Below, piece by piece: positions 39,307-54,673 of a stretch of DNA of 64,000 nucleotides. The notes below the pieces were generated by a model. That model was not told where the DNA came from. It made no database searches and saw nothing but the letters and a program-made list of their open reading frames with translations. The DNA is from Betaproteobacteria bacterium Ga0074130 (GTDB taxonomy: Bacteria; Pseudomonadota; Gammaproteobacteria; Burkholderiales; Rhodocyclaceae). The number at the start of each line of letters is the position of its first letter. The first letter of the stretch is position 1. Where the stretch lies: positions 15,455 to 79,454 of the forward strand of contig LNDZ01000029.1 of the NCBI GenBank assembly GCA_001464495.1, written 5' to 3'. Made by a program: the position numbers and the translations under genes.

Positions 39307-39477
39307 ACGAAACAGAAAAGCACCCTGAACCCACCAGTTCGGCTAAGCTTCGACCAAGAAAAACGAGGGGCGCTGCTACCACCCGACCCAGCCTACCCGC
39401 TGTGTCGGGCGTCGTTGTGCCTGCAAGCCTGCTTACCCGCGGGCTCCACACCACTCTCACAAGGAGGAGGAGACAGG

Positions 39478-42168
<2,691 letters not shown>

Positions 42169-53696: not shown

Positions 53697-54113
53697 TCAG
53701 GCCTCGACAACTTCCCAAGTATGCGTAATTTCGGCTGTCTTGCCTAGCATGATCGACGCTGAGCAATATTTCTCAGCAGATAGCTTGATAGCACGCTCTA
53801 CGGCTTCCGGCTTTAAGTTACGGCCCGTAACCGTGAAATGAAAGTTGATCCGGGTGAAAACCTTTGGGTCGGTGTCGGCACGGTCTGCCTGCAATTTGGC
53901 GGAACAACCGGTGATGTCCTGACGCCCGCGCTTGAGAATCAATACAACATCGTAGGCTGTGCAAGCCCCGGTACCCAGCAAGACCATTTCCATTGGCCGA
54001 GGCGCGAGGTTGCGCCCTCCCCCCTCAGGAGCGCCATCCATGGTGACCAGATGACCGCTGCCCGTCTCGGCAATGAAACTCATCCCTTCACCCCACCGCA
54101 CAACGCATTCCAT
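53697..54113 (-). CDS. osmC: OsmC/Ohr-family peroxiredoxin-like protein
   Basis: The segment APRPMEMVLLGTGACTAYDVVLIL, with a second Cys in EKYCSASIML, is the OsmC two-Cys pattern. I chose the start at 54113 because AAGGA lies 6 nt upstream. The start is uncertain (54113, 54119 or 54140). Confidence 0.7.
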   Translation of the reverse strand: MECVVRWGEGMSFIAETGSGHLVTMDGAPEGGGRNLAPRPMEMVLLGTGACTAYDVVLILKRGRQDITGCSAKLQADRADTDPKVFTRINFHFTVTGRNLKPEAVERAIKLSAEKYCSASIMLGKTAEITHTWEVVEA

Positions 54114-54390
54114 AACCATTCCTTTTGTCAGAAGCGTCATTCTAGCCTGAGTAAAGACAGCCTGAACAAGCCAAATTGCTGCGCCGCACAACCCCCACCT
54201 AAAAGCCTTCAAATCAAAGACTTTTATGCGACCATAATCAAGCGTTCATGGCCTTCATGATTTTTATAATCTTATGTTTTTATTAAATATAAGAAGGTAT
54301 AAAGATACCAACTTATGGGAATAAAAACATTTGTTGTGCAACGCACAAAAAAGACTTGCAGCCATTTTTTCTGTCTGCCACAATTCATAC

Positions 54391-54549
54391 AACCTGAATT
54401 CACGCAAGTATTTGCGTATCTTTCGTAACAGGTTGTTTGGCGGCTGCCACCACTGAACTTCCTTGCCTTGGCGTAATTCGCGGTTCTCCTCCACCCTCCT
54501 CCTCTGGTGTGGAACTCAAAGCGCAACCCTCGGGTTGCGCTTTTTCTTT
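54391..54549 (+). ncRNA. Candidate small RNA with tandem CU-rich (anti-Shine-Dalgarno) motifs
   Basis: A putative promoter (ttgcag 54356-61, 17 nt, cacaat 54379-84) precedes it.
- 5' stem 54389-96 pairs with 54429-36 and encloses the hairpin acgcaa-gtat-ttgcgt.
- CU-rich tract ucuccucc-a-cccuccuccucu lies at 54485-54505. The second motif sits in the loop of a ccaccc/ggtgtgg stem.
- Intrinsic terminator gcgcaacc-ctcg-ggttgcgc plus ttttt lies at 54521-54545.
- No ORF with an RBS is present.
- The 5' end is inferred only. Confidence 0.45.
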
Positions 54550-54673
54550 GTGGCAACCCGAGTGCTACCTTGCGCCCTAGGCCTAAGCTCAGCTAAACTA
54601 TTTCCGACAAAAACGATCAACTATTCGGGTGAGCCTCACCCGAATGGCCAGAACACTGAAAAGGAACGCAGCA

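Follow-up and report, generated by a model that had tools for sequence, protein, structure and literature searches.

A non-coding unit between osmC and grxD

Does the 560-nt gap between osmC and grxD hold a gene of its own, and if it does, to which family does that gene belong? The window analyzed here, a 64-kb stretch of DNA, has its closest genomes and proteins among Rhodocyclaceae MAGs, which places its host among the Betaproteobacteria. An initial annotation of the gap had proposed a trans-acting small RNA with a sigma70 promoter, a 5' stem, two copies of a CU-rich motif and a strong intrinsic terminator, and all of these features are indeed present in the sequence. The length of the gap assumes that osmC starts at 54113. 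A mechanical ORF (53697-54212) opens at TTG 54212 and would encode 171 aa, while ATG 54113 gives 138 aa, and we adopted the latter because homologues and public gene calls have 138 aa. The grxD gene is read from the plus strand and starts at ATG 54674, and the gene order of the window is coq7 (+), osmC (-) and sRNA (+). The features of the RNA and its divergent neighbor are as follows:

53697..54113, minus strand: osmC-family gene (Pfam OsmC; 138 aa), a divergent neighbor conserved with the sRNA family
54391..54483, plus strand: 5' leader of the predicted primary transcript, with a start near A54391, 7 nt after the -10
54484..54549, plus strand: core sRNA of about 66 nt, which corresponds to the RF02278 model and is predicted to be the short active form
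54485-54505, plus strand: pyrimidine tract ucuccuccacccuccuccucu, read in the sequence
54484..54492, plus strand: CU site 1, UUCUCCUCC, that is UUCUCC(UCC), of which 54484-54489 are single-stranded and form the 5' end of the short form
54490..54513, plus strand: hairpin 1, a 7-bp stem with one bulged U and a 9-nt loop, from the fold, invariant in nine relatives
54497..54505, plus strand: CU site 2, UCCUCCUCU, the 9-nt loop of hairpin 1
54518..54549, plus strand: intrinsic terminator, an 11-bp stem with loop CUCG and tail UUUUUCUUU, from a terminator scan and the fold

Folding separates this unit into two unequal parts. The whole 159-nt unit folds with z = -4.8, and this signal comes from the 3' 66 nt, which fold as a double hairpin (z = -7.4), and not from the 5' 93 nt, which fold no better than shuffles (z = -0.9). 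A structured leader was rejected on that value. Of the single unit first claimed, the 3' 66 nt thus stand as the family unit described below, and the 5' 93 nt are a variable leader. In hairpin 1, UCCACCC (54490-54496) pairs with GGUGUGGA (54506-54513), leaving U54508 bulged, and the second CU copy occupies the 9-nt loop (54497-54505), as had been proposed. Both CU sites are unpaired in the MFE and consensus folds. The terminator, whose stem (54518-54528 / 54533-54543) contains an 8-bp G+C core (54521-54528 / 54533-54540), was positive in the terminator scan and ends 125 nt before the grxD ATG, which bears out the earlier description of it. Its U-rich tail is the likely Hfq-binding 3' end, a role taken over from S17 of Bordetella pertussis. 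By itself, the motif CCTCCTCC is unremarkable, with three occurrences seen against 1.36 expected and three reached in 17 of 100 shuffles.

The core RNA is a divergent member of the RF02278 family

The gap had been suspected to hold a relative of the betaproteobacterial toxic small RNAs (tsRNAs), and a comparison with Rfam had been suggested. In E-value mode, positions 1-64 of the 64 positions of RF02278 (Betaproteobacteria toxic small RNA) align to 54483-54548 on the plus strand with 40.7 bits, corresponding to E = 9.5e-7 over 601 nt and E = 1e-4 over the whole 64-kb window. This full-length match, together with an osmC/coq7 position that is typical of the family, upholds the suspected resemblance, though the score lies under the RF02278 gathering score of 50 bits, which is a database threshold and no biological feature. 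RF02278 is the sole Rfam match at E <= 0.05 in the window. It is seen only in E-value mode; a search of the whole 64-kb window at gathering thresholds returned no tRNA, riboswitch or other family. Three loci of the same clade (L001, L209 and L213) likewise score 38-41 bits or fall below the RF02278 cut-off. The other families considered (Atu_C9, mir-5856, Pxr, ar14, sX13 and ncS025) were rejected, as they match the terminator hairpin only or are non-significant.

Structurally, the window RNA shows the double hairpin of the family, which spans about 60-70 nt (66 nt here) and closes with an intrinsic terminator, and the position of the locus and its taxonomy also agree with the family. The curated Rfam score is not reached, however, and the conserved block is not strictly identical. 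The window RNA is a mildly divergent homologue that default Rfam annotation misses. We conclude, with a probability of roughly 85%, that a trans-acting, Hfq-type sRNA of the tsRNA/double-hairpin/S17 family is encoded here by a gene of its own, divergent from osmC and next to coq7. The family reading is supported by the full-length RF02278 match, the near-identical core found in many copies above the Rfam cut-off, and the osmC/coq7 position.

To place the core within the wider family, metagenome contigs were scanned with the pattern CTCCTCCAC-N(1-4)-CTCCTC-N(2-10)-GTGGA. Outside the window, 103 of the 121 matches have the same layout as the window RNA, with a CU site, a short CU-loop hairpin, a variable G+C-rich hairpin and a T-run. 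Because the pattern also matches the window, these copies are blind to variation in hairpin 1. All 17 metagenomic loci tested (18 copies) pass the Rfam gathering score, with 58-70 bits. The commonest core among the 103 copies served as a proxy for the 27-nt S17S block that has been termed 100% conserved (PMC11722255). Its central 17 nt, CUCCUCCACCCUCCUCC, are identical in the window clade, but the clade departs from this core at three or four near-invariant positions. A U replaces G two nt upstream of CUCC (GUU), which is found in only one of the 103 copies; the loop reads CCUCU rather than CCUUU, and GGAAC instead of GGAUU follows the stem, neither of which occurs in any of the 103. Since these changes fall at near-invariant positions, the targets of the window clade may differ.

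The family is linked to osmC and coq7

Synteny was counted in the 85 metagenomic copies whose upstream flank is 700 nt or longer. In 67 of them (79%), a divergent osmC homologue is found no more than 800 nt upstream, beside coq7 as in the window, and coq7 is directly upstream in 12 more. The osmC start lies 101-452 nt from the core (median 330), and 373 nt from it in the window. In six copies that have neither osmC nor coq7 as a neighbor, the promoter abuts the core. A tblastn search of the window proteins against the metagenomic sRNA loci likewise found osmC and coq7 by most copies and grxD by none. Conversely, when 80 grxD loci of species-representative genomes were examined, only one carried the element, that of the nearest relative, L001. 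Linkage to grxD is therefore confined to the Rhodocyclaceae clade of the window, whereas coq7 (+), osmC (-), sRNA (+) is the canonical position of the sRNA family.

Two classes can be distinguished within the family. In osmC/coq7-linked copies the promoter motif lies 49-222 nt upstream of the core, and in unlinked copies it lies 37-38 nt upstream. The longer distance in the linked copies implies a 5' leader, while the six unlinked copies start at the CU site. A separate case was seen on a Georgfuchsia-like contig (L216:1700-1800, minus strand of the locus; OsmC 82% identical), where an RNA occupies the same osmC-linked position. Its promoter is that of the family (TTGCACTGCAACA...TAAGAT), its first CU site reads UUCUCCUCCUC and its terminator is similar, but its hairpin 1 differs (GUCCCC / GGGGGC) and has no CU loop. 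Rfam at E <= 0.1 gave no match at this RNA, which is possibly a further diverged orthologue.

Conservation in relatives outlines the RNA and its promoter

For a comparison at closer range, relatives were chosen through an OsmC search and not through the RNA itself. This gave seven loci (L209-L214 and L217) whose OsmC is 91-95% identical to that of the window and whose order is kinase, grxD, gap, osmC, coq7, CNP1 and NUDIX. Contigs of the same species and L001 are too similar to the window for an informative comparison. Mean pairwise identities over nine aligned sequences (window, L001, L209-L214 and L217) were as follows:

Hairpin 1 and both CU sites: 0.99
Terminator: 0.92; variable loop and maintained stem, with a single A-U to G-U change
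5' leader: 0.78 (window against L209-L217, 0.62), with 1-2 nt indels
-35: 0.81
17-bp promoter spacer: 0.54, with constant length
-10: 0.94
20 nt beyond the terminator: 0.38, lower than anywhere else in the gap

The CU motifs, hairpin 1 and the terminator are thus conserved in relatives, as expected for the RNA first described, but the 5' stem is not. Hairpin 1 is invariant in the nine relatives, which leaves it no substitutions for a covariation test.

Upstream of the leader, two hexamers form the predicted promoter:

54356..54361, plus strand: predicted -35, TTGCAG; TTGC is invariant in nine sequences, and TTGCAn recurs in the family and S17 promoters
54379..54384, plus strand: predicted -10, CACAAT; GACAAT in relatives, with variable sequence on both sides

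TTGCAG-17-CACAAT fits only 7 of 12 consensus positions, and a consensus promoter scan called no promoter for the sRNA. Nevertheless, the hexamers TTGCAn and nACAAT are conserved around a variable spacer that is fixed at 17 bp, and this footprint supports a sigma-70 promoter despite the weak consensus match. The promoter named in the initial annotation is accordingly borne out by phylogeny more than by its consensus score. The footprint lies 130 nt upstream of the core, and the motif-to-core distances of the family range from 37 to 222 nt.

The leader and its predicted removal

The 5' end of the predicted transcript had been drawn as a stem between acaacctg (54389-54396) and caggttgt (54429-54436) enclosing an inner hairpin, ACGCAA-GTAT-TTGCGT (54402-54417). 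This drawing did not survive comparison: two substitutions in L001 break the stem, and the inner hairpin is absent in L209-L217. An RNAalifold consensus of the nine transcripts prefers pairings other than this stem and joins AACCnGAA with UUCnCGGUU and ACGCAAG with CUUGnCGU, so that the 5' end of the leader meets the segment just before the seed. One pair in the leader clearly covaries (G-C in five sequences, A-U in four), two further pairs show single compensatory changes, and the conserved leader-end pairing is suggestive but weak. Because the leader folds at chance level and only one pair clearly covaries, the processing model is drawn by analogy. A precursor of about 159 nt (54391-54549) would yield, by cleavage, an active RNA of about 66 nt (54484-54549), and the 5' 93 nt would probably be removed as they are in B. 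pertussis S17 and Burkholderia cenocepacia ncS27. The proposed cut, GG|UUC (54483/54484), resembles the sequence that RNase E prefers, RN|WUU.

The short RNA could also arise without any precursor, if its transcription began at the core itself, from a promoter just before 54484 that has escaped recognition, and the hexamers at 54356-54384 served otherwise. Six metagenomic copies and Burkholderia ncS03, ncS05 and ncS62 do begin at the core, and the 20 nt upstream of the window core (TCTTGnCGTAATTCGCGG) are conserved and contain TGnCGTAAT. However, CGTAAT lacks an A at -10 position 2 and has no -35 at the right distance, and pairing of the 20 nt with the leader's conserved 5' end can account for their conservation. 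Copies that begin at the core carry the family motif 37-38 nt upstream of it, where the window has no motif, whereas the osmC- and coq7-linked copies all have it further upstream; both experimentally mapped homologues of the osmC/coq7 type are processed. A direct start is therefore improbable, and we retain the processed precursor as the preferred account. Candidate sigma-54 and direct sigma-70 promoters just upstream of the core were also considered and rejected, since neither their spacing nor their key bases fit.

Independence from grxD

In the annotation that first described the RNA, a leader or attenuator of grxD had been kept as a fallback. The unit would then act in cis, with transcription from 54391 either stopping at the terminator or reading into grxD. 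The unit does share a strand with grxD and stops 125 nt short of it, and all nine members of the clade keep the two together. The sequence downstream of the terminator, however, disfavors this reading. The 20 nt that follow are the least conserved of the gap (0.38), and beyond them lies a conserved promoter, TTGCnC-18-TAAACT, that belongs to grxD itself:

54570..54599, plus strand: grxD promoter, TTGCGC (54570-54575)-18-TAAACT (54594-54599), a footprint downstream of the sRNA terminator

Its -35 is 87% and its -10 100% conserved, around a spacer of 57%. After the -10 come 24 invariant nt (54600-54623), the start of the grxD 5' UTR. Outside the clade, moreover, the RNA keeps company with osmC and coq7, not with grxD. 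Only the nearest relative among the 80 grxD loci carries the element, and no metagenomic copy lies near grxD, which rules out a conserved grxD leader. The RNA has no segment that could fold with the terminator into an alternative structure. Taken together, this makes a cis-acting grxD element very unlikely.

Downstream of the invariant grxD 5' UTR start, the window and L001 share a hairpin, TTCGGGTGAG-CC-TCACCCGAA (54624-54645), which a different hairpin, GATCAACT-ATTA-AGTTGATC, replaces in L209-L217.

That the region instead codes for a small protein (a 76-aa or 94-aa ORF on the minus strand, or a 47-aa ORF on the plus strand) is scarcely credible: these ORFs exist, and two public contigs carry an automatic annotation of the 76-aa ORF, but that ORF has no Pfam match, relatives carry 1-2 nt indels and open frames that differ in frame and extent, and conservation peaks on the RNA hairpins and not on any frame. 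No conserved reading frame was found in relatives on either strand. The 76-aa ORF (54264-54494, minus strand; 2591-2821 in L082 and L083) runs antisense to the sRNA promoter and leader, and it is probably a false gene call because it has no Pfam match and its frame is lost in relatives. With its own promoter footprint, a separate grxD promoter and no conserved frame, the unit between osmC and grxD is an independent non-coding transcription unit.

A palindrome beside the promoter

The copies of the family share more than a core. Among 104 copies examined, 78 have the motif TTGCnnnGCA upstream; the window is the 104th and has no such motif. A -10-like hexamer follows at 17 bp in 62 of the 78 motif-bearing copies, giving a promoter consensus of TCTTGCAttGCACaAa-N10-tAnAAT. 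The motif is at the same time an imperfect dyad, TnnTGC-N3-GCAnnA, and the closest sequence to it in the window lies just upstream of the footprinted promoter:

54334..54348, unstranded: TTGTGC-AAC-GCACAA, a perfect palindrome located between the divergent promoters of osmC and the sRNA

This palindrome is the top match in the window to a PWM on both strands, with 11.5 and 10.1 bits, and the next match reaches 4.6. Its arms are invariant and its central 3 nt variable in nine related sequences, and it lies 8 bp upstream of the footprinted -35. As the sRNA promoter itself it was rejected, since no -10 follows at 17 bp. It may serve as an operator. For the S17 promoter a repressor has been postulated (PMC11722255), and the dyad, which overlaps the sRNA -35 in most lineages, would suit such a repressor. 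A broader reading, which we regard as rather unlikely and raise only tentatively, is that the sRNA and the divergent osmC form a conserved module across Betaproteobacteria under a dimeric regulator that binds TnnTGC-N3-GCAnnA.

A second inverted repeat, ATAAG (54289-54293) / CTTAT (54312-54316), stands in the AT-rich part of the osmC-grxD gap. Its arms (54289-54316) are conserved in relatives while the sequence between them varies, and it may be part of the osmC promoter region.

Comparison with characterized small RNAs

The closest characterized counterpart is S17 of B. pertussis. Its long form, S17L, has 190 nt and is transcribed from the promoter TTGCAT-17-TACTAT; RNase E processes it to a stable 67-nt RNA, S17S, which binds Hfq (PMC11722255). 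Site 1 at the 5' end and Site 2 in a loop match the RBS regions of 70 derepressed genes, and repression of the sigma-54 activator BP2158 through Site 1 has been proven by compensatory mutations (PMC11722255). The family has been reported in Burkholderiales and in Aromatoleum (Rhodocyclales) (PMC11722255). The window RNA resembles S17 in its 5' CU site, its CU-loop hairpin, its intrinsic terminator and a short form of about 66-67 nt, and CU sites 1 and 2 correspond to Site 1 and Site 2. Both promoters fit TTGCAn-17-nAnnAT, and the long primary transcript of S17 is matched by a predicted one in the window. The coq7 neighborhood is also shared, except that in the window osmC stands between coq7 and the RNA. 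The leaders, by contrast, are unrelated in sequence and differ in length (about 123 nt in S17 and 93 nt in the window), and only in Bordetella is BvgAS the regulator.

The RF02278 family is represented in B. cenocepacia by ncS03, ncS05, ncS27 and ncS62, which fold as double hairpins and have unpaired CU-rich regions that are complementary to RBSs (PMC5688073, PMC4603805). One of them, ncS27 (bdhR1), has 92 nt and is processed to a short form (PMC5688073); cells that overexpress it grow more slowly, and the reverse is seen when its CU region is silenced (PMC5688073, PMC4603805). It was later tied to carbon-source use, in the account given by a review (PMC10987360). The Burkholderia tsRNAs share the covariance-model architecture with the window RNA over its full length, and the 5' extension of ncS27 is processed. 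Burkholderia and Herbaspirillum have three to five copies per genome, against one in the 64 kb of the window.

Two more distant systems help to delimit the family. Neisseria NmsR (NgncR_162/163) pairs with the RBSs of metabolic genes through two unpaired CU-rich stretches, as summarized in PMC5688073. It is a tandem pair, longer than the window RNA and from another sequence family, and with no homology detected, it serves as an analogy only. Xanthomonas sX13 (RF02232) has C-rich loops that are thought to pair with G-rich mRNA leaders. Its match to the window is non-significant (16 bits, E = 1.4), its fold is different, and its family is gammaproteobacterial.

Proposed mode of action

On the model of these homologues, the sigma-70-type promoter TTGCAG-17-CACAAT would start a transcript near 54391 that the intrinsic terminator would stop at 54549, giving about 159 nt. 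RNase E would probably cleave the variable leader around GG|UUC and leave a stable RNA of about 66 nt, presumably Hfq-dependent by analogy with its homologues. This RNA is predicted to expose two CU-rich sites, UUCUCC(UCC) at its 5' end and UCCUCCUCU in the loop of hairpin 1, which may pair with the GGAG-rich RBSs of several mRNAs and so repress their translation.

Target identity, too, can be approached by way of the homologues. The conserved S17 target, a sigma-54 activator gene, was sought in the window by signature motifs, and none was found there. An exploratory look at the 64 kb gave one plausible target site, that of aceE (PDH E1, 896 aa, ATG at 39478), whose leader AAGGAGGAGGAGACAGGAUG could form 8-10 bp with either CU site. 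The SD-like tract of the same leader (39457-39480), AAGGAGGAGGAGAC, is unusually long and lies a few nt upstream of the ATG.

Implications

The locus leaves unchanged the mode of action that is known for such sRNAs. For specialists it adds two classes of copies, a common promoter dyad, and changes in both seed regions that are fixed in a Rhodocyclaceae clade. If the sRNA and osmC were indeed to form a module under one regulator, this would couple a global anti-SD regulator to a redox, peroxide-stress or ubiquinone-related signal, and the window clade, with its perfect palindrome and new -35, would show that control being rewired. The more immediate gain is in annotation, since default Rfam searches are silent and a spurious 76-aa ORF is called at a place where a homologue of a widespread global translational regulator sits.
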